The notes beneath the pieces were generated by a model. It was not told where the DNA came from. It searched no databases and was given only the letters and a program-made list of their open reading frames with translations. This document shows positions 1 to 6,675 of a stretch of DNA of 6,675 nt, piece after piece. The DNA comes from a virus (lineage: Duplodnaviria; Heunggongvirae; Uroviricota; Caudoviricetes). The position numbers and the translations under genes were made by a program. The DNA lies in IMG/VR virus record IMGVR_UViG_2648501392_000001, positions 1-6,675 of that record; one strand, given 5' to 3'. Position 1 is the stretch's first letter; the number at the start of each line of letters is the position of its first letter.

Positions 1-110
1 CCTTTAAATGCCGTCTGGCGAAGAGTGGTGATCAGTTCCTGTGGGTCGACAGAATCCATGCCGACACGTTCAGCCAGCTTCCCTGCCAGCGTTGCGAGTG
101 CTGTACTCAT
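1..110 (-). CDS. bet: Bet (Red-beta) single-strand annealing recombinase, N-terminal part only; the gene runs off the left edge
   Basis: Minus-strand translation from ATG at 110..108 gives MSTALATLAGKLAERVGMDSVDPQELITTLRQTAFK, which matches the N-terminus of lambda Bet as I recall it. It begins 5 nt after the gam stop, as in lambda. Confidence 0.9.
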   Translation of the reverse strand, partial: MSTALATLAGKLAERVGMDSVDPQELITTLRQTAFK

Positions 111-115
111 CCGTT

Positions 116-532
116 TTATACCTCTGAATCAATATCAACCTGATGGTGAGCAATGGTTTCAACCATGTACCGGATGTGTTCTGCCATGCGCTCCTGAAAC
201 TCAACATCGTCATCAAACGCACGGATAATGGCTTTTTTGCTGGCCCCGTGGCGTTGCAAATGATCGATGCATAGCGATTCAAACAGGTGCTGGGGCAGGC
301 CTTTTTCCATGTCGTCTGCCAGTTCTGCCTCTTTCTCTTCACGGGCGATCTGCTGGTAGTGACGCGCCCAGCTCTGAGCCTCAAGACGATCCTGAATGTA
401 ATAAGCGTTCATGGCTGAACTCCTGAAATAGCTGTGAAAATATCGCCCGCGAAATGCCGGGCTGATTAGGAAAACAGGAAAGGGGGTTAGTGAATGCTTT
501 TGCTTGATCTCAGTTTCAGCATTAATATCCAT
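116..532 (-). CDS. gam: Gam, host RecBCD inhibitor. Long form is 138 aa (116..532); the short GamS form (98 aa) would start at ATG 412..410
   Basis: ORF-track protein [32 protein letters not shown]...[10 protein letters not shown] is near-identical to lambda Gam from memory. The internal ATG at 412 has a strong SD (AGGAG, 7-nt spacer), whereas the long-form ATG at 532 has no SD, so the short form is probably the main product. Confidence 0.9.
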
Positions 533-630
533 TTTTTATAAGCGTCGACGGCTTCACGAAACATCTTTTCATCGCCAATAAAAGTGGCGATAGTGAATTT
601 AGTCTGGATAGCCATAAGTGTTTTATCCAT
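487..630 (-). CDS. kil: Kil, host cell-division (FtsZ) inhibitor, 47 aa
   Basis: ATG at 630..628 gives [47 protein letters not shown], matching lambda Kil from memory (a few substitutions). It overlaps the long-form gam N-terminus as in lambda. SD GGAG lies about 9 nt upstream. Confidence 0.8.
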
Positions 631-763
631 TTTTGGGAACTCCTGGCTGATTAAGTACGTCGATGAGTCGTTTCCATCCGTCACGTAATTTACGTGTGAT
701 TCGCTCAAGTAAAGATTCGGAAGGGCAGCCAGCAACAGGCCACCCTGCAATGGCATATTGCAT
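623..763 (-). CDS. cIII: cIII, inhibitor of FtsH-mediated CII degradation; 46 aa here, apparently C-terminally truncated relative to lambda cIII
   Basis: ATG at 763..761 gives [46 protein letters not shown] followed by TAA at 625..623. This matches lambda cIII residues 1-46 from memory. SD GGAG (complement of 771-774) is 7 nt upstream. Confidence 0.75.
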   Translation of the reverse strand: MQYAIAGWPVAGCPSESLLERITRKLRDGWKRLIDVLNQPGVPKNG

Positions 764-834
764 GGTGTGCTCCTTATTTATACATAACGAAAACGCCTCG
801 AGTGAAGCGTTATTGGTATGCGGTAACGCCGCGC

Positions 835-1203
835 TCAGGCGGCTTTGATAGTCATATCATCTGAATCAAATATTCCTGATGTATCGATATCGGTAATTCT
901 TATTCCTTCGCTACCATCCATTGGAGGCCATCCTTCCTGACCATTTCCATCATTCCAGTCGAACTCACACACAACACCATATGCATTTAAGTCGCTTGAA
1001 ATTGCTATAAGCAGAGCATGTTGCGCCAGCATGATTAATACAGCATTTAATACAGAGCCGTGTTTATTGAGTCGGTATTCAGAGTCTGACCAGAAATTAT
1101 TAATCTGGTGAAGTTTTTCCTCTGTCATTACGTCATGGTCGATTTCAATTTCTATTGATGCTTTCCAGTCGTAATCAATGATGTATTTTTTGATGTTTGA
1201 CAT
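835..1203 (-). CDS. ea10: Ea10-like protein, 122 aa, in the position lambda ea10 occupies between cIII and the ral/sieB region
   Basis: ORF of 369 nt on the pL-operon strand, same length and position as lambda ea10. SD GAGGA lies upstream of ATG 1203. Identity is assigned from synteny and size; I cannot verify the sequence from memory. Confidence 0.6.
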   Translation of the reverse strand: MSNIKKYIIDYDWKASIEIEIDHDVMTEEKLHQINNFWSDSEYRLNKHGSVLNAVLIMLAQHALLIAISSDLNAYGVVCEFDWNDGNGQEGWPPMDGSEGIRITDIDTSGIFDSDDMTIKAA

Positions 1204-1353
1204 CTATTCATATCCTCACAGATAAAAAATCGCTCTCACATTGGAGGGCAAAGAAGATTTCCAATAATCAGAACAAGTCGGCTCCTGTTTAGTTACGAGC
1301 GACATTGCTCCGTGTATTCACTCGTTGGAATGAATACACAGTGCTTATTCGTA

Positions 1354-1824
1354 CTAATAAAATACCCAATTTTCTGTTTCTTGGTTGTGTCCAAAGTTAT
1401 ATTCAATATCTGGTGTTGATGTATCAATATTCTTCATCCCATCAACAAGAGTTGATACAACAGCCAAATCTTGTTTTATTCTCATTAAATGGTATTTCTT
1501 CCGGCGCAATAAACTTTCAATAGCAAGTTTCTTCGTTGGGAATGCAAAAGATCTTTCTGCATTTTTTGCTACTTTCTTAATTGCATATCTATTTCTCCTT
1601 TGTTTCCATTCCTGTAACCACTGATTTGGTGCTGGTTTAAAATTAACAATCCAATGCGCAGGAACCAACCATGCATAATGCTCTGTCTGATGAAAAGCTA
1701 TATATTGAAGTGCGAATATTTTTATCCCATCTTCTTCAACTGTCGCCTGGAATCTCCAGAAAACAGGCATTCCATCATGTTCAGTTTCTAATTCAGGAAA
1801 AGGTACGCTCCATGATTTTGTCAT
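1354..1824 (-). CDS. Hypothetical protein, 156 aa, in the position where lambda carries ral and sieB; non-lambda cargo gene
   Basis: ATG at 1824..1822 is preceded by SD GAGGTGA. It is co-oriented with the pL operon between N and ea10. It has a basic central stretch (WKQRRNRYAIKKVAKNAERSFAFPTKKLAIESLLRRKKYHLMRIKQ) and no obvious transmembrane segment. I do not recognise the family. Confidence 0.6.
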   Translation of the reverse strand: MTKSWSVPFPELETEHDGMPVFWRFQATVEEDGIKIFALQYIAFHQTEHYAWLVPAHWIVNFKPAPNQWLQEWKQRRNRYAIKKVAKNAERSFAFPTKKLAIESLLRRKKYHLMRIKQDLAVVSTLVDGMKNIDTSTPDIEYNFGHNQETENWVFY

Positions 1825-1882
1825 ATCTCACCTCAAATAAGTGGTTTGCTGCCTAATTTCATTTTCTGGCGACCAACACAAG

Positions 1883-2266
1883 TCACCTCGCCGTCAGTTG
1901 TTTGGATTTCCGGTAGCCTGCCGCGTAAATGGCTACGTTTGGAAGACATACACCAGTTTCTGGTTGCTTATGTCCAAACTCATTCGCGTACACAATGGCC
2001 GCTCGCTCCAGATTGCGTCTGTATTCTTTCTGTTGCCAGATCACGTCTTGTGCCATGAACTTAATTGGCTTAGCGTCTTCTATACGCTCAGGCGTTTCGT
2101 GAGTACCTTTAGCCTGAATCTGCGCTCTGCTTAGAGTAGGGCGGTGTAATACTTCTGAACTTATTGCTTCTTCGCGGGCCAGTACGCCATTAGCTAATGC
2201 CTTTACCTTTAAACGCTCACGACGACGAGAACGTGAATTGCCTTTGAACTGAGTTCTGCGTGTCAT
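1883..2266 (-). CDS. N: N-type transcription antitermination protein, 127 aa, P22 gp24-like
   Basis: It is the first gene downstream of pL/nutL. ATG 2266..2264 has a strong SD (AGGAGG, 5-nt spacer). The N-terminal arginine-rich motif GNSRSRRRERLKVKALA resembles the P22 N motif GNAKTRRHERRRKLAIER, and the C-terminus VAIYAAGYRKSKQLTAR resembles P22 gp24 VALYAAGHRKSKQITAR (both from memory). Confidence 0.85.
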   Translation of the reverse strand: MTRRTQFKGNSRSRRRERLKVKALANGVLAREEAISSEVLHRPTLSRAQIQAKGTHETPERIEDAKPIKFMAQDVIWQQKEYRRNLERAAIVYANEFGHKQPETGVCLPNVAIYAAGYRKSKQLTAR

Positions 2267-2279
2267 ATAGACCTCCTGA

Positions 2280-2420
2280 TGAACTTTGGTGGTGTGGTAG
2301 GTGGGAGACCCATTTCGACCTGTTTCGGCCTACTTCAATTCGGCAATAGTCCCGCAGGCTTCGCCGCTTTACGTGCGACATATTCCCGTCCATGAACCCT
2401 TCACCACACCCCAAAGTTCA
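2280..2420 (-). promoter_or_regulatory. Long-range inverted repeat in the N leader, a candidate RNase III-type processing or translation-control stem
   Basis: 2280-2298 (TGAACTTTGGTGGTGTGGT) is the reverse complement of 2403-2420 (ACCACACCCCAAAGTTCA) apart from one bulged base. The 3' arm ends directly next to the N SD at 2271-2276. Confidence 0.5.
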
Positions 2421-2431
2421 CTTTGGTTATT

Positions 2432-2446
2432 GCGCTTTGTCAGCGC
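2432..2446 (-). promoter_or_regulatory. nutL boxB hairpin (P22-type, GACAA loop)
   Basis: Minus-strand RNA reads GCGCUGACAAAGCGC: a 5-bp stem with GACAA pentaloop, matching the P22 boxB I recall. It lies between pL and N. CTACG sits immediately 5' of it, as at nutR. Confidence 0.75.
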
Positions 2447-2506
2447 CGTAGATTCATATTCGAATCGTTGTATATTCACCGCCCTGGTGAGTAGTGCGTC
2501 CTGCTG

Positions 2507-2600
2507 ATGGCTTAAAGATAACCTAGGTTATAGTGGTGGTCAATAACTTAATTTATGGATTCTGATAAATAAGTTATATGTGATGGATAATAAAGGTATT
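2507..2600 (-). promoter_or_regulatory. OL operators and pL promoter (leftward)
   Basis: Operator-like palindromes at 2518-2531 (ATAACCTAGGTTAT, perfect), 2543-2556 (ATAACTTAATTTAT), 2566-2578 (ATAAATAAGTTAT) and 2587-2600 (ATAATAAAGGTATT), the same family as the sites between cI and cro. Candidate pL on the minus strand: -35 TTGACC (complement of 2538-2543), 17-nt spacer, -10 TATCTT (complement of about 2515-2520). Confidence 0.6.
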
Positions 2601-2717
2601 TTATTTTTGTAAATGTTGCGGATTGGTCGGTATTGGAAGGGGGGCGCTGTATTGCTGTCGTGTTGGTTCGTGGTTTACCGCATTTGCGGCTGTTAAATAT
2701 GGGGGACGATCGCGAGG

Positions 2718-2746
2718 CAAAGAAAACCCGGCGCGGAAGCCGGGTT
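2718..2746 (-). terminator. Rho-independent terminator (minus strand) downstream of the 44-aa ORF
   Basis: Minus-strand RNA AACCCGGC-UUCCGC-GCCGGGUU followed by UUCUUUG: an 8-bp GC-rich stem with a U-rich tail, 16 nt after the ORF stop. Confidence 0.65.
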
Positions 2747-2762
2747 TGAGATTTAGTTATTT

Positions 2763-2897
2763 TCAGCAGCTCGGATAAGAGCGGAAGTGCTGACGAACAT
2801 GTTCGAGCTCACCGAAACGTATGCGGCAGTAACTGCGCACATAAACCGGCTTGTCGTGTTCGTAGATGAAGTCATCGCGATTAACATCGTGAGCCAT
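2763..2897 (-). CDS. Small hypothetical protein, 44 aa (MAHDVNRDDFIYEHDKPVYVRSYCRIRFGELEHVRQHFRSYPSC)
   Basis: ATG at 2897..2895 is preceded by SD AGGAGA with a 7-nt spacer; stop TGA at 2765..2763 is followed by an intrinsic terminator. This frame is not in the supplied ORF track (too short). It contains several His and Cys residues. Confidence 0.55.
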   Translation of the reverse strand: MAHDVNRDDFIYEHDKPVYVRSYCRIRFGELEHVRQHFRSYPSC

Positions 2898-3045
2898 AGC
2901 TTTTCTCCTGTTTTTGTATACAGCCTGTTTACCCGAACAGGTTGTAGTTTGTTGGGAGAACCGCTATCCTTGGCTTGCGGTTGCCAAGGGTGTAGCGGTA
3001 GGTAATCCTCCATACACTTCGGAAATACTGGATATATTTCCGACC

Positions 3046-3080
3046 CAAAAAGCCCCGTTCCCTCGGGGCTTTATTCTTTT
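3046..3080. terminator. Bidirectional rho-independent terminator, the tIMM-equivalent ending the cI operon
   Basis: GCCCCG(3052-3057)-TTCCCT-CGGGGC(3064-3069). On the minus strand it is followed by UUUUU (complement of A-run 3047-3051), immediately after the 177-aa ORF stop at 3071-3073. On the plus strand it is followed by TTTATTCTTTT (3070-3080). Confidence 0.75.
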
Positions 3081-3604
3081 GTTCCGCCATCAATCATCGC
3101 AAAAGATTCCACAATCAGACTGATACGCTTGGCTTCATCTTTTGTCAGGTCGCGAGGCAGGTTGCCAATGGTGACGATAAGATCTCCGCGCAATGGAATC
3201 GGCAGTTCAAATGTTTTTACACCAACCTGTACGTCAGCTACCGCCTTCTTCTTAGGTGCCATCTTTTTACGCTCCTTTTTTTTATTTACATCACCAACTG
3301 ACACATTAATCTCACCATTCTGGTAGGAGATAAATTTATCAATAGCACTTTGCATTCGGCTTTTGTATGCCTGCAAAGATGATTCAGAAGGTTTGCTTTC
3401 TGCTGAGTCTGCGTACGAACTTGCTAAGTTGGCAACGCTATAATCACGGATATCGGCATCGGTGAAATCCGACCCAAGAACAGTAAGAAGGCGCAGGGAA
3501 GAGTCACGGAGATTGCGGGCTGTAGCATCATTGACGATACCAAGCTCAGGAAGCATCTGTAAGAAGTCCTGAAATGCTTTGATGGTGTAGCTTTTGGTTT
3601 GCAT
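3071..3604 (-). CDS. Hypothetical protein, 177 aa, distal gene of the cI-linked cassette (rexB-equivalent position); two-domain layout with a lysine-rich linker
   Basis: ATG 3604..3602 with SD GAGG and a 7-nt spacer; the stop abuts the terminator. The protein has a central KKKERKKMAPKKK linker separating an N-terminal domain of about 105 aa from a C-terminal domain of about 55 aa. No obvious transmembrane segment. Family not recognised. Confidence 0.7.
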   Translation of the reverse strand: MQTKSYTIKAFQDFLQMLPELGIVNDATARNLRDSSLRLLTVLGSDFTDADIRDYSVANLASSYADSAESKPSESSLQAYKSRMQSAIDKFISYQNGEINVSVGDVNKKKERKKMAPKKKAVADVQVGVKTFELPIPLRGDLIVTIGNLPRDLTKDEAKRISLIVESFAMIDGGTKE

Positions 3605-3793
3605 AAAAAAGCCTCATACAGTTGATGAGGCAATACTAATTTGATCGTCAAAACAAATCAAGACCCAAGAAACGATCGTTGATTCCTTTCTTTGTGACAA
3701 TACAGTCAAATCAAGTTTTACAAGGATTACTTTTCTTCGATTACATTAAAGGCCGCACTTCTGCGACCATCCATCACCAAAATGTCTCTTCAC

Positions 3794-4135
3794 TCATCCG
3801 AAGAAGCAGCAATCCGGGTCAGCACGCACAAGCTCAAGCGCATCAGTCAGCGAAAGTTCAGTACTGTACTGATGCCATTTCATATCCTTCCGCATCCAAT
3901 AGATTTTCCATCTATCCAGAGAACGTATGTACTTGATTCTTGCTGATGGCAGGATGTTTGTTTCACCTGGGTTGCCCTGCCACACGGGGCGCTGTTCGCC
4001 GATATCTATCGTTTGGTCATTGATGCTATAAACAATATCCAGTTCATTGCGGATATGTTCAGGCGGCCTTATGCTTTCAATGAATTGGTGAACTTCTTTT
4101 TTGACCGCTTGATATTCAAGGTCAGTGAACGCCAT
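3794..4135 (-). CDS. Hypothetical protein, 113 aa, proximal gene of the cI-linked cassette (rexA-equivalent position)
   Basis: ATG 4135..4133 with strong SD GAGGAGG and a 4-nt spacer, only 37 nt downstream of the cI stop on the same strand, so it is probably co-transcribed from pRM. Family not recognised. Confidence 0.7.
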   Translation of the reverse strand: MAFTDLEYQAVKKEVHQFIESIRPPEHIRNELDIVYSINDQTIDIGEQRPVWQGNPGETNILPSARIKYIRSLDRWKIYWMRKDMKWHQYSTELSLTDALELVRADPDCCFFG

Positions 4136-4172
4136 CTATCCTCCTCACCCAAACGTTTCTTCAGGCCACTGG

Positions 4173-4880
4173 TTACCAGCTATGCGATGACCAGAATACT
4201 CTGCCAATAATCCTTACGGTTTTATGAAATTCATCTCTATCCATTACTTCATCCGGGTACTCTTCGCGATTTATTGATCTGATTATCACCGATGTAGGAG
4301 TGGCGATTAATGTTTTTACTCGCAACAAATCAGACTGGCAAATAGCGTAGGTTTTACCATCTCTGATGGTGGTATCTTGTGTGTTAACACCAACAACATC
4401 GCCATCGTGAAGAGTTGGTTCCATGCTTTGACCTGTTACCCTTACCAGCTTGGCAGAACTTTCAGTTACCCCCATCTTTTTCAGATAGTACTTTCTGAAA
4501 ACCAAAGAGAACTCTGATGATTCTTCTATCTCGCAGCTACCGCTTCCAGCCGAAAGCGAAACGTTAAGAAGAGGCAATGCGACAAACTCGTCATCGTTTT
4601 TTTTAATGTCTTCCCATACCACAGCTTTTAAAGATGACTCACGGATATTGGATGGTTCTTCATGTGTACCATCCCTCATTTCACCAATACCAGAACTAAG
4701 CCATTCAGGGCGTACTTTTAAAGCATTAGCTAACTCAACCATCTTGCGAGATCCGTTTGTTTTACCGGATGACATCTTCTGTATGGCTGGCTGAGATATT
4801 CCAACCATGTCCGCAAGCTGTGATTGCGACACCCCTGCCGATCTCATGGCTGCATTTAGTCTTTCTGCGAATGTTTTCAT
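4173..4880 (-). CDS. cI: CI-type prophage repressor, 235 aa: N-terminal HTH plus C-terminal S24 (LexA-like) autopeptidase domain
   Basis: Translation contains an HTH region (QSQLADMVGISQPAIQKM), an Ala-Gly cleavage site (SLSAGSG), the serine motif GQSMEP and a downstream Lys (LLRVK). It is divergent from cro across an operator-rich region. I chose ATG at 4880 with no SD (leaderless, as for lambda pRM transcripts) over the in-frame TTG at 4910. Confidence 0.9.
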   Translation of the reverse strand: MKTFAERLNAAMRSAGVSQSQLADMVGISQPAIQKMSSGKTNGSRKMVELANALKVRPEWLSSGIGEMRDGTHEEPSNIRESSLKAVVWEDIKKNDDEFVALPLLNVSLSAGSGSCEIEESSEFSLVFRKYYLKKMGVTESSAKLVRVTGQSMEPTLHDGDVVGVNTQDTTIRDGKTYAICQSDLLRVKTLIATPTSVIIRSINREEYPDEVMDRDEFHKTVRIIGRVFWSSHSW

Positions 4881-4991
4881 ATCCACAAATCTATAACTAC
4901 GGTTATCCAAAGTAAAATAATAAAGGTTATTGCTATCTTTTATAACTTGGGTTATCCTTGGTTATAAGTAATGGCTGAAAGAGGTATGCTC
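4881..4991. promoter_or_regulatory. OR operators with divergent pRM (leftward) and pR (rightward) promoters
   Basis: Three 14-bp palindromes of the ATAAC-N4-GTTAT family at 4893-4906 (ATAACTACGGTTAT), 4916-4929 (ATAATAAAGGTTAT) and 4942-4955 (ATAACTTGGGTTAT), spaced 23 and 26 bp, plus an extra GGTTAT half-site at 4960-4965. Candidate pRM on the minus strand: -10 TAGATT (4888-4893), start at the cI AUG, -35 TTTACT (4911-4916). Candidate pR -10 TATAAG at 4964-4969; the pR -35 is ambiguous. Confidence 0.65.
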
Positions 4992-5216
4992 ATGAATTTA
5001 GTAATTCACCGAGCCTTGAAGATTGTCGGTAGTCAAAAGCGGCTTGCCGACAAGTGTGGTGTAACGCAGCCAGCAGTACACAAATGGCTGAAAGGCGGGC
5101 AGGTTTCTCCAGAGAAAGTTACCGCCATCGTTAACGCCACTGGAGGGCAGATCAAGGCTTACGAAATTCGCCCAGATTTACCACACCTGTTTCCAAAACC
5201 GAATCAGGCAGCATAA
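4992..5216 (+). CDS. cro: Cro-type HTH repressor, 74 aa
   Basis: It is divergent from cI and first on the rightward operon. ATG 4992 is preceded by SD AAGAGG with a 7-nt spacer. HTH-like segment QKRLADKCGVTQPAVHKWLKG. The sequence is unlike lambda Cro, so this is a different immunity type. Confidence 0.8.
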   Translation: MNLVIHRALKIVGSQKRLADKCGVTQPAVHKWLKGGQVSPEKVTAIVNATGGQIKAYEIRPDLPHLFPKPNQAA

Positions 5217-5254
5217 GTAACACCGCTATTTTCACAATGGACATTCGTCCTACG

Positions 5255-5269
5255 TCGCTGACAAAGCGA
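5255..5269 (+). promoter_or_regulatory. nutR boxB hairpin (P22-type, GACAA loop)
   Basis: TCGCTGACAAAGCGA between cro and cII, with the same loop and CTACG 5' flank as nutL. A candidate boxA-like CGCTATTTT lies at 5224-5232 but is weak and uncertain. Confidence 0.7.
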
Positions 5270-5342
5270 GCCCCAAGATATCTGACCAACTAAGGCCATA
5301 TGTGTTTCCACGCATACCTTTCAACTAACTATTCACTATTGG

Positions 5343-5377
5343 AAATATTAAGAAATGACACAAACAAGTTACAGCAA
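5343..5377 (-). promoter_or_regulatory. pRE-like CII-activated promoter (leftward), overlapping the cII start
   Basis: Minus strand reads TTGCTGTAACTTGT (complement of 5364-5377; a TTGC-N6-TTGT CII box), then 12 nt, then TTAATAT, then TTCC. This has the same architecture as lambda pRE (TTGC-N6-TTGC, 12 nt, TAAGTAT, TTCC) from memory. Confidence 0.55.
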
Positions 5378-5651
5378 ACTATCCCAGCGCGACGTTGATC
5401 GCGCAGAAACGGATTTACTCATCAACCTGTCAACGCTTACCCAGCGCGGTCTGGCAAAGATGATTGGCTGTCATGAATCGAAGATAAGCAGAACGGACTG
5501 GAGATTTATTGCTTCGGTCCTGTGTGCTTTCGGAATGGCATCAGACATCAGTCCGATTAGCAGGGCTTTTAAGTATGCGCTTGATGGAATCACCAATAAA
5601 AAACGCCCGGCGGCAACCGAGCGTTCTGAACAAATCCAGATGGAATTCTGA
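5355..5651 (+). CDS. cII: CII-type transcriptional activator, 98 aa, chimeric: non-lambda N-terminal region with the lambda C-terminal 19 aa
   Basis: The C-terminus TNKKRPAATERSEQIQMEF is identical to the lambda cII C-terminus from memory; the first 79 or so residues differ. Position between nutR and O matches. Confidence 0.85.
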   Translation: MTQTSYSKLSQRDVDRAETDLLINLSTLTQRGLAKMIGCHESKISRTDWRFIASVLCAFGMASDISPISRAFKYALDGITNKKRPAATERSEQIQMEF

Positions 5652-5673
5652 GGGAATTACTGGATCAATCCAC
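5597..5673 (-). ncRNA. oop: oop antisense RNA (about 77 nt), with its tO terminator at 5597-5623
   Basis: The minus strand across 5597-5680 reads ...GACTCCTGTGGATTGATCCAGTAATTCCCTCAGAATTCCATCTGGATTTGTTCAGAACGCTCGGTTGCCGCCGGGCGTTTTTTATTGGTGA, near-identical to the lambda tO/oop region I recall (hairpin GCCGCCGGGCG plus U6). It is antisense to the 3' end of cII. Exact ends are estimated by analogy with lambda. Confidence 0.7.
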
Positions 5674-5682
5674 AGGAGTCAT

Positions 5683-5711
5683 TATGACAAATACAGCAAA
5701 AATACTCAACT
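5683..5711 (-). promoter_or_regulatory. pO promoter driving oop
   Basis: Minus strand: -35 TTGAGT (complement of 5706-5711), 17-nt spacer, -10 CATAAT (complement of 5683-5688), placing the start near 5675. Confidence 0.55.
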
Positions 5712-6622
5712 TCGGCAGAGGTAACTTTGCCGAACAGGAGCGTAATGTGGCAGATCTCGATGATGGTTACGCCAGACTATCAAATATGCTGATTGAGGCT
5801 TATTCAGGCGCAGATCTGACCAAGCGACAGTTTAAAGTGCTGCTTGCCATTCTGCGTAAAACCTATGGGTGGAATAAACCAATGGACAGAATCACCGATT
5901 CTCAACTTAGCGAGATTACAAAGTTACCTGTCAAACGGTGCAATGAAGCCAAGTTAGAACTCGTCAGAATGAATATTATCAAGCAGCAAGGCGGCATGTT
6001 TGGACCAAATAAAAACATCTCAGAATGGTGCATCCCTCAAAACGAGGGAAGTTCCCCTAAAATGAGGGACATCCCTCAAAACGAGGGAAAATCCCCTAAA
6101 ACGAGGGATAAAACATCCCTCAAATTAGGGGATTGCTATCCCTCAAAACAGGGGGACACAAAAGACACTATTACAAAAGAAAAAAGAAAAGATTATTCGT
6201 CCGAGAATTCTGGCGAATCCTCTGACCAGCCAGAAAACGATCTTTCTGTGGTTAAACCGGATGCTGCAATTCAGAGCGGCAGCAAGTGGGGAACAGCAGA
6301 AGACCTGACCGCCGCAGAGTGGATGTTTGACATGGTGAAGACCATCGCACCATCAGCCAGAAAACCGAATTTTGCAGGGTGGGCTAACGATATCCGCCTG
6401 ATGCGTGAACGTGACGGACGTAACCACCGCGACATGTGCGTGCTGTTCCGCTGGGCATGCCAGGACAACTTCTGGTCCGGTAACGTGCTAAGTCCGGCCA
6501 AACTCCGCGACAAGTGGACCCAACTCGAAATCAACCGTAACAAGCAACAGGCTGGCGTGACAGCTGGAAAACCAAAACTCGACCTGACAAACACTGACTG
6601 GATTTACGGGGTGGATTTATGA
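5684..6622 (+). CDS. O: Replication initiator O, 312 aa, with the origin iterons inside its coding sequence
   Basis: ORF-track protein MTNTAKILNFGRGNFAEQERNVADLDDGYARLSNM...TDWIYGVDL is near-identical to lambda O from memory. SD AGGAG is 5 nt upstream of ATG 5684. The stop overlaps the P start (ATGA). Confidence 0.95.
   Translation: MTNTAKILNFGRGNFAEQERNVADLDDGYARLSNMLIEAYSGADLTKRQFKVLLAILRKTYGWNKPMDRITDSQLSEITKLPVKRCNEAKLELVRMNIIKQQGGMFGPNKNISEWCIPQNEGSSPKMRDIPQNEGKSPKTRDKTSLKLGDCYPSKQGDTKDTITKEKRKDYSSENSGESSDQPENDLSVVKPDAAIQSGSKWGTAEDLTAAEWMFDMVKTIAPSARKPNFAGWANDIRLMRERDGRNHRDMCVLFRWACQDNFWSGNVLSPAKLRDKWTQLEINRNKQQAGVTAGKPKLDLTNTDWIYGVDL
6032..6200. repeat. Replication origin: six O-binding iterons (6032-6156) followed by an A-rich tract (6157-6200)
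   Basis: Iterons TCCCTCAAAACGAGGGA-like at 6032-6049, 6052-6069, 6071-6088, 6091-6108, 6115-6132 and 6138-6156, each an internal inverted repeat, spaced 19-24 bp. Then cacaaaagacactattacaaaagaaaaaagaaaagattattcg. Confidence 0.85.
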
Positions 6623-6675
6623 AAAACATCGCCGCACAGATGGTTAACTTTGACCGTGAGCAGATGCGTCGGATC
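6619..6675 (+). CDS. P: Replication protein P (DnaB helicase loader), N-terminal part only; the gene runs off the right edge
   Basis: Translation MKNIAAQMVNFDREQMRRI matches the lambda P N-terminus from memory; start overlaps the O stop. Confidence 0.9.
   Translation, partial: MKNIAAQMVNFDREQMRRI

Follow-up and report, generated by a model that had tools for sequence, protein, structure and literature searches.

Two probably independent accessory modules between cI and pL in the immunity region of a Shiga toxin-type lambdoid prophage

The stretch of DNA analysed here, which we call the window, comprises positions 1 to 6,675 of the viral record IMGVR_UViG_2648501392_000001 (6,675 nucleotides; Caudoviricetes). 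According to the listing of open reading frames (ORFs) and family scans, it is the immunity region of a lambdoid prophage of the Shiga toxin (Stx) type, with N, oL/pL, a block of cargo genes, cI, cro, cII and O (Table 1). Among phage records, Stx-converting Traversvirus genomes come closest; identity to Escherichia phage SH2026Stx1 is 96% over 2500-4250, and the best match among complete E. coli genomes extends over 87% of the window at 99.3% identity. The cI-type operator pattern TATAAC-N3-GGTTATC has six matches in the window, against 0.07 expected, and a promoter-like site lies near oL on the minus strand (2543-2515, promoter scan). Because operators are present at both oL and oR, the interval of about 2600-4172 lies between cI and pL, in the slot that lambda gives to rexAB. 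This gap is the home of rex in lambda. A first-pass annotation had proposed that the slot holds one uncharacterised cassette, encoding proteins of 113 and 177 residues on the cI strand, as a replacement for rexAB. The coordinates of both genes agree with the ORF listing, and the operator matches confirm the rex-equivalent position; the pairing of the two genes does not hold up. The best explanation of the interval, including an exclusion role and with a probability that we put at about 0.6, is that two independent accessory modules were stacked between cI and oL/pL by mosaic recombination.

The first of these modules contains the 113-residue gene, which is already catalogued and had been called unrecognised in error. 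Its product matches Pfam DUF3024 (PF11225) with 108.7 bits and an E-value of 2.4e-31 over profile positions 2-112 of 112, family membership being taken as a full-length hidden Markov model match above the gathering score of 24.9 bits. It also matches the PADLOC single-gene candidate PDC-S43 (E-value 7.2e-42, positions 1-115 of 115), and it shares 98% amino acid identity with L0084 of phage 933W, which likewise stands right after cI. The literature searched only lists DUF3024 and PDC-S43, and we found in it no published test of PDC-S43 as a defence gene. The product is a small alpha+beta protein, catalogued in defence solely as a candidate.

The strong Shine-Dalgarno (SD) sequence described earlier in the gap between the cI stop codon and the 113-residue ORF can be read directly from the DNA, the gap carrying GAGGAGGATAG immediately 5' of the ATG (4133-4135). 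Nucleotide homology to about 100 phage records is limited to 3750-4184, that is, to the last bases of cI, the SD sequence, the DUF3024 gene and the hairpin GGTCGCAGARRTGCGGCC. Since homology of the 933W type spans this whole segment, we assign the spacer to the DUF3024 module. Among the phage records, both the cI alleles on one side and the downstream content on the other vary, and the records with the DUF3024 segment number about 100, those with the whole interval 3. The hairpin at 3751-3768, whose T-run is weak in the window (TTTAATG), is also found 3' of DUF3024 in 933W, Erwinia and VT2-Sakai, and homology between the phages stops just beyond it. In 933W the next genes encode a RuvC-like protein (L0083) and the kinase Stk (PADLOC PD-T4-6 / mad6). 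The same four-gene block is present in Erwinia at a non-cI locus, a prophage end after dinI genes. In Yersinia enterocolitica DUF3024 precedes a HEC-04-like ATPase and a type II methyltransferase, whereas E. coli 14EC007 has two different hypothetical genes in this place; in Rahnella nothing follows it. We picture module 1 (about 3750-4184) as the DUF3024 gene with its SD sequence and 3' hairpin, which lacks a promoter of its own and serves as a constant leader ahead of interchangeable cargo. Judging from the 37-nt coupling and from the literature on transcription of the 933W block, the lysogen most likely produces DUF3024 from the transcript of the repressor gene: cotranscription of Stk with cI has been described (PMC3564112), DUF3024 falls together with cI, L0083 and stk in the phi24B transcriptome (PMC10789677), and cI and stk are unaltered upon induction (PMC4651098).

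Could DUF3024 be a modulator of RecA and the SOS response, or a Hex-like or PsiB-like shield of the repressor against cleavage, rather than an anti-phage effector? The gene always stands beside RecA-linked genes, S24-type repressors or dinI homologues, and Hex shows such a function within a cI operon (PMC3564112). We nevertheless regard this explanation as improbable: DUF3024 has no sequence similarity to PsiB, DinI or Hex, the repressor next to it in Y. enterocolitica has no S24 domain, and general hotspots for cargo include both the prophage end beside dinI and the cI slot, the 177-residue module likewise lying after dinI in Salmonella.

The distribution of the 177-residue gene argues for its independence from DUF3024. 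It is present in 6 of 5,426 complete E. coli genomes, compared to 227 for DUF3024. A profile scan of genome contigs with the 177-residue profile gave three loci, back-translated patterns being too specific. In the absence of DUF3024, homologues are located at a prophage end next to a pepN-proximal dinI homologue in Salmonella (79% identity), next to gin in Yersinia phage YP3 (73%), right after cI or after cI-BstA in Y. pseudotuberculosis prophages (52%), after cI in Serratia marcescens (41%) and, on the opposite strand, near int in Leminorella (34%) and between SSB/primase and tail genes in Klebsiella, where a 175-residue ORF lies upstream of a 45-residue gene. Homologues in Salmonella phage Oslo, VT2-Sakai and 40-odd other Stx phage records (39-41%) follow cI, and those in Enterobacter and Citrobacter (about 40%) reside in satellites resembling phage-inducible chromosomal islands (PICI-like), between replication and capsid genes. 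Altogether, the family is found right after cI in five lambdoid lineages, for example in E. coli (including VT2-Sakai), Yersinia, Serratia and Salmonella phages. In VT2-Sakai the 500 unannotated nt that separate cI from orf22 represent a DUF3024 pseudogene with a frameshift (L026 2541-2842; two tblastn segments in different frames, 81-85% identity) next to an intact 177-family gene; therefore, DUF3024 can decay while its neighbour is kept.

These distributions largely refute the proposal that DUF3024 and the 177-residue protein work together as a single two-component system for exclusion or abortive infection, whose genes would be transcribed along with cI as rexA-rexB are. As a pair the genes fail the co-occurrence check: besides the imbalance of 227 to 6 genomes, members of the 177-residue family are found without DUF3024 in at least seven other contexts (Salmonella, Yersinia, Klebsiella, Leminorella, Serratia and Enterobacter are represented), and DUF3024 accompanies unrelated cargo. 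The decay of DUF3024 beside an intact partner in VT2-Sakai, together with a predicted promoter of the 177-residue gene and two intergenic hairpins, points in the same direction. The two genes do lie on the same strand, they are adjacent in at least four of the six E. coli genomes that have the 177-residue gene, the DUF3024 remnant of VT2-Sakai adjoins a 177-family gene, and the weak T-run of the hairpin at 3751-3768 could permit some read-through; on balance, we consider a single two-component system very improbable.

The recurring unit is formed instead by the 177-family gene and a small ORF downstream of it; the association is frequent but not obligatory, as far as the compared loci tell. 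In the window this ORF encodes 44 residues. In E. coli, Salmonella, Symbiopectobacterium, Leminorella, Klebsiella, VT2-Sakai and phage Oslo, a member of its family follows a 177-family gene at a distance of about 170 nt, and the small ORF persists even at loci whose large protein shares no more than 34-40% identity. Compared with Symbiopectobacterium, it has 14 synonymous and 3 non-synonymous codon differences, and by such sequence comparison it is a real gene. In a DNA alignment with the Salmonella and Symbiopectobacterium copies, which occupy unrelated loci, homology begins about 60-100 nt 5' of the 177-residue ATG and covers the promoter, the 177-residue gene, the terminator, the 170-nt spacer, the 44-residue ORF and the final terminator from end to end; that final terminator (2715-2747) is kept at the module end in both. 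The pair occupies at least six unrelated prophage positions without DUF3024; in Leminorella it lies near int, and in Klebsiella it is placed on the opposite strand, flanked by SSB/primase and tail genes. A type II toxin-antitoxin arrangement of the pair was rejected, as a strong terminator and the 170-nt spacer separate the two genes and no toxin or antitoxin model of Pfam or PADLOC is matched.

The spacer itself (2898-3048, minus strand) contains the inverted repeats CGGAAATA-N7-TATTTCCG, ACCGCTA...TAGCGGT and ACAACCTGTTCGGGTAAACAGGCTGT. In Salmonella its sequence is almost unchanged, and no structure is conserved over the more distant loci. A structured leader ahead of the 44-residue ORF was considered and dropped, RNAalifold on seven loci having backed the terminator hairpin alone.

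On the minus strand we found three hairpins and one gene beyond those described in the first-pass annotation, as well as a predicted sigma-70 promoter for the 177-residue gene. The hexamers of this promoter and their spacing of 17-18 nt are kept at the Salmonella, Symbiopectobacterium, Yersinia and Serratia loci, with variable spacer sequence. Between the -10 element and the ATG lies the hairpin at 3611-3631, which has the SD sequence (GAGG) within its 3' arm and starts one base past the -10, or three bases past it if counted to the conserved CTCAT core. The hairpin is kept in Salmonella, Yersinia and phage YP3, its outer pairs covary (G:C, CA:TG, TT:AA), and its spacing to the -10 is fixed in four lineages (the window, Salmonella, Symbiopectobacterium and Yersinia); the T-run behind it is not universal among lineages. 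At the 3' end of the gene, the strong bidirectional terminator reported earlier is present (3049-3072), and it is the sole structure conserved across all seven aligned loci according to RNAalifold.

We propose that module 2 (about 2715-3680) is a self-contained moron with its own promoter and terminator, arranged in the order sigma-70 promoter, 177-residue gene, terminator, 170-nt spacer, 44-residue gene and terminator. The hairpin upstream of the ATG would pair with the SD sequence. Transcripts from the module's own promoter, with a predicted start about 7 nt past the -10 that lands in the 5' arm of the hairpin, would be translatable, and the hairpin would form only in transcripts coming from cI, whose read-through would be either terminated or masked. 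Alternatively, the inverted repeat at 3611-3631 may act as an auto-operator. The earlier suggestion that the 177-residue gene is co-transcribed with cI has become doubtful, given its own conserved predicted promoter and the two hairpins 5' of the gene.

Two GATC (Dam) sites, at 3643-3646 and 3674-3677, are 31 bp apart and flank the -35 element of this promoter. Within 150 nt upstream of 177-family genes, GATC occurs 16 times, against 3.4 expected (Poisson P of about 6e-7), in seven independent lineages (the window and loci L009, L006, L020, L028, L014 and L026). Such clustering may point to control by Dam or SeqA, or to a GATC-containing operator. A cI-operator-like site, TATAATCACGGATATC, with two mismatches, lies inside the 177-residue gene at 3439-3454; it is probably due to chance, because the Salmonella copy has three mismatches and the segment codes for a conserved DIRDYS motif.

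The 177-residue protein belongs to a family of 1,121 cluster representatives (E-values up to 0.001), nearly all of 160-200 residues and matched end to end. The description of its gene as unrecognised stands: no model of Pfam, NCBIfam or PADLOC was matched by the family, which is undescribed so far. As had been noted, the protein has two domains with a lysine-rich linker between them. AlphaFold2 predicts a confident four-helix domain for residues 1-98 (pLDDT, the per-residue model confidence, of about 90) and a poorly defined remainder, and the recombinase-like repressors MrpR and SroF are among the lower-ranked matches of this N-terminal domain. Searches of the PDB with both proteins and both family profiles returned sub-threshold matches only; with the 177-family profile, residues 76-157 of lambda Int account for four of the five best (E-value of about 1). 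Furthermore, 6 of 33 family members weakly match Phage_int_SAM_5. These three independent lines, weak to moderate each, lead us to the core-binding (SAM-like) four-helix domain of tyrosine recombinases, a DNA-binding fold. The catalytic domain (R-K-H-R-H/W-Y) is not present: the protein stops at residue 177 and has no Phage_integrase Pfam match. Most likely, the protein binds DNA via a catalytically empty integrase-type core-binding domain, in keeping with the earlier suggestion of nucleic-acid binding.

Compared with lambda Int (residues 75-160), XerC/D and IntI, and also with MrpR and SroF, the 177-residue protein has neither the catalytic nor the arm-binding domain, and all sequence matches to this group are sub-threshold. 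Its core-binding domain is fused by the lysine-rich linker to a 45-residue motif that has no known relative. A short beta-beta-alpha motif makes up the C-terminal 50 residues, and nowhere is the family more conserved than in the last 45 (FELPIPLRGDLIVTIxNLPRDLTxxEAxRIS...). The motif stays conserved regardless of which small ORF lies downstream, which suggests oligomerisation or a conserved cellular partner, and not the small protein, as the reason for its conservation. We therefore hypothesize that the protein probably oligomerises, or binds a conserved partner, via this near-invariant motif; the 44-residue protein could be a co-factor or effector.

What might the second module do? In relatives, the slot between cI and pL carries recognised defence cargo, namely Stk (PD-T4-6), BstA, and a HEC-04-like ATPase with a methylase, which upholds its earlier description as a site of defence cargo. 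The neighbours of 177-family modules include BstA, the superinfection-immunity gene Imm_superinfect, SieB and PDC-S43, and one context is a PICI-like satellite. Because the module travels as cargo in prophage and satellite hotspots beside known exclusion genes, its most likely role, to judge from genomic context, would be a lysogen-expressed function against other mobile DNA, that is, superinfection exclusion or defence.

A DNA-binding regulator of the prophage switch, of integration and excision, or of host genes, parallel to lambda RexA, 434 Hex and the recombinase-derived repressors MrpR and SroF, is an only slightly less likely function of the 177 + 44 module. The strong preference for the neighbourhood of cI, with the gene right after cI in five lambdoid lineages, agrees with such a role, and the inverted repeat at the predicted start could be an auto-operator, while Dam site clusters in the promoters suggest regulated expression. 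There are precedents both for the fold, in the recombinase-derived repressors, and for the genomic position, in 434 Hex, the product of a cI-operon gene that stabilises lysogeny (PMC3564112). However, the module is also found far from switches, at prophage ends, beside gin in a non-lambdoid phage and in satellites, and phages whose repressors are unrelated carry it too, which speaks against a role specific to the switch. Given the two-module anatomy, we favour defence or exclusion over pure regulation by a small margin.

The dinI neighbourhood in Salmonella raised the additional candidate of LexA-controlled antirepressors of the Gifsy type (GfoA/GftA). These are small (about half of the 146-residue Tum) and are encoded right after dinI in a LexA-regulated operon near replication genes (PMC3121763). 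We rejected the candidate by this description, as the 177-residue protein has its own predicted promoter and lies next to the pepN-proximal dinI homologue.

A more specific version of the defence role, which we think unlikely, is that the 177-residue protein and its small partner constitute an unrecognised, widespread two-gene system against mobile elements in Enterobacterales prophages and satellites. The dead integrase domain would then recognise incoming phage or satellite DNA, for instance attachment sites of the core type or replication intermediates; the effector would be the C-terminal motif together with the small basic protein, and the promoters rich in Dam sites would gate expression. 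In the literature we found nothing on standalone core-binding-domain proteins in defence.

The order cI-L0084-L0083-stk-L0081-tM of 933W resembles the window in placing DUF3024 immediately behind cI, in sharing its SD spacer and 3' hairpin, and in having exclusion cargo in the slot, the 933W Stk being the protein that matches PD-T4-6. According to work cited in PMC3564112, Stk is reported to abort HK97 infection. The two regions differ in their cI alleles and operators, and beyond the hairpin 933W has a RuvC-like gene, the kinase and L0081, where the window has the 177- and 44-residue genes. With the cI-rexA-rexB-tIMM operon of lambda, the window shares the location between cI and oL/pL, the common strand, a terminator before pL and, as we infer, expression in the prophage. 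Neither protein resembles RexA or RexB, in line with the first-pass annotation (no Rex family match in Pfam, PHROGs or PADLOC), and the window genes have no membrane component. Whereas rexAB is inherited and transcribed as one unit, module 2 has its own predicted promoter and an internal terminator. The PDC-S43 copy of the window leads a cI operon and does not belong to a chromosomal defence island. Among the closest known counterparts of module 2 are orf22 of VT2-Sakai (VT2-Sap23) and gp53 of Oslo, 39-41% identical and located in the same slot between cI and N, with a small ORF of the 44-residue family behind them; they represent a divergent subfamily, and the small ORF of VT2-Sakai is unannotated.

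Several observations weigh against our explanation. The predicted promoter of the 177-residue gene fits 8 of 12 consensus positions, falls below the threshold of the promoter scan and was not called, and the model of the C-terminal domain has low confidence. The proximity of the 177-residue gene to DUF3024 in at least four of six E. coli genomes would be compatible with a local functional link in that lineage. The 44-residue ORF is absent beside the 73% homologue in Yersinia phage YP3, where there is no room for it, and other small-ORF families replace it in Yersinia, Serratia and Enterobacter. In Yersinia (L020 5682-5858), Serratia (L028 5744-5929) and a distant metagenomic contig (L018 1248-1379), the ORF 3' of the 177-family gene belongs to phrog_33859; these ORFs were uncalled and share the motif APPGYRW..CRYR...LDAH.YGY..W.FLVR. 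In Enterobacter and Citrobacter satellites, a Cys-rich ORF of 46 residues with a weak treble-clef zinc-finger match occupies the place. Homology between phrog_21154 and phrog_33859 was unsupported (hhalign probability 0.3%). With these points taken into account, we hold the anatomy, that is, two independent modules, the 177- and 44-residue genes as a unit and a core-binding-like DNA-binding protein, to be highly probable. Both modules appear to be accessory morons in an immunity-region hotspot and are well-delimited candidates.

Table 1. Features of the window, ordered by position
Feature	Position	Strand	Basis or remark
DUF2528 (ea10-type) gene	835-1203	minus	
156-residue gene, 933W L0079	1354-1824	minus	phrog_1636; adjoins N
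N	1883-2266	minus	family scans
oL operator, perfect TATAACCTAGGTTATC, pL side of cargo slot	2517-2532		pattern search
Terminator closing module 2 (AAACCCGGC...GCCGGGTTT and T-run)	2715-2747	minus	-15.8 kcal/mol; position equivalent to tIMM
44-residue protein gene	2763-2897	minus	phrog_21154 (1.9e-31); recurring partner of the 177-residue gene
Strong intrinsic terminator after the 177-residue gene	3049-3072	usable on both	-15.3 kcal/mol
177-residue protein gene	3071-3604	minus	
Integrase-like core-binding (SAM-like) domain, residues 1-98	3311-3604		N-terminal
Lys-rich linker, residues 99-127			includes KKKERKKMAPKKK at residues 107-119
Conserved C-terminal motif FELPIPLRGDLIVTIGNLPRDLTKDEAKRIS, residues 128-170			
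Hairpin GCCTCATCAACTGTATGAGGC, then TTTTTT, directly 5' of the 177-residue ATG	3611-3631	minus	terminator scan; -10.1 kcal/mol
Predicted sigma-70 promoter of the 177-residue gene: -35 TTGATT (3656-3661), 17-nt spacer, -10 TAGTAT (3633-3638)	3633-3661	minus	
Conserved hairpin GGTCGCAGAAGTGCGGCC, 3' boundary of the DUF3024 module	3751-3768	minus	terminator scan; -12.1 kcal/mol
DUF3024 / PDC-S43 protein gene, 113 residues	3794-4135	minus	first accessory gene of the cI operon
Spacer between cI and DUF3024, 37 nt, SD GAGGAGG five nt before the ATG	4136-4172	minus	read from sequence
cI stop codon	4173-4175	minus	read from sequence
cI repressor, helix-turn-helix and S24 peptidase domains	4173-4910	minus	Pfam Peptidase_S24 (3.9e-18), HTH_3; phrog_4 transcriptional repressor
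oR operators TATAAC-N3-GGTTATC between cI and cro	4892-4907 and 4941-4966		pattern search; direct-repeat family D2
cro	4971-5216	plus	
cII	5355-5651	plus	
O, with iterons	5684-6622	plus	

Some further features of the window lie outside the two modules. The listed cI ORF opens at a TTG (4910), an ATG at 4880 being the likelier start, and a homologue in E. coli F8704-2 is annotated at 235 residues. The 156-residue gene of the L0079 type is swapped for a putative nucleotide-modification protein of the Nmad5 family in the closest E. coli prophage (L004 1485-2108) and in phages like SH2026Stx1, so that the position next to N is a further exchangeable cargo position, in the pL operon. The Rfam search of the window (E-values up to 1) gave nothing in 2700-3800 and a single real match, Lambda_thermo, the cIII thermoregulator RNA (718-776, minus strand; 88.5 bits, E-value 3e-21, full model), which lies at the start of the cIII/kil region. 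The iterons of the O gene (6027-6153, repeats of ATCCCTCAAAACGAGGGA), which correspond in position to the annotated ori iterons of 933W, gave a spurious sub-threshold match to SNORA74.

What a lysogen excludes is determined by the genes that lie in the gap between cI and pL, as with lambda rex and 933W stk, and the slot is built of separately exchangeable blocks. The unit to be studied is thereby corrected from DUF3024 and the 177-residue protein to the 177- and 44-residue proteins. An unannotated family of about 1,100 clusters with a probable integrase-like DNA-binding domain occurs in medically important Stx phages, including VT2-Sakai. If either module indeed serves defence or the control of lysogeny, this would matter for how stable Shiga-toxin prophages are and for their host range.

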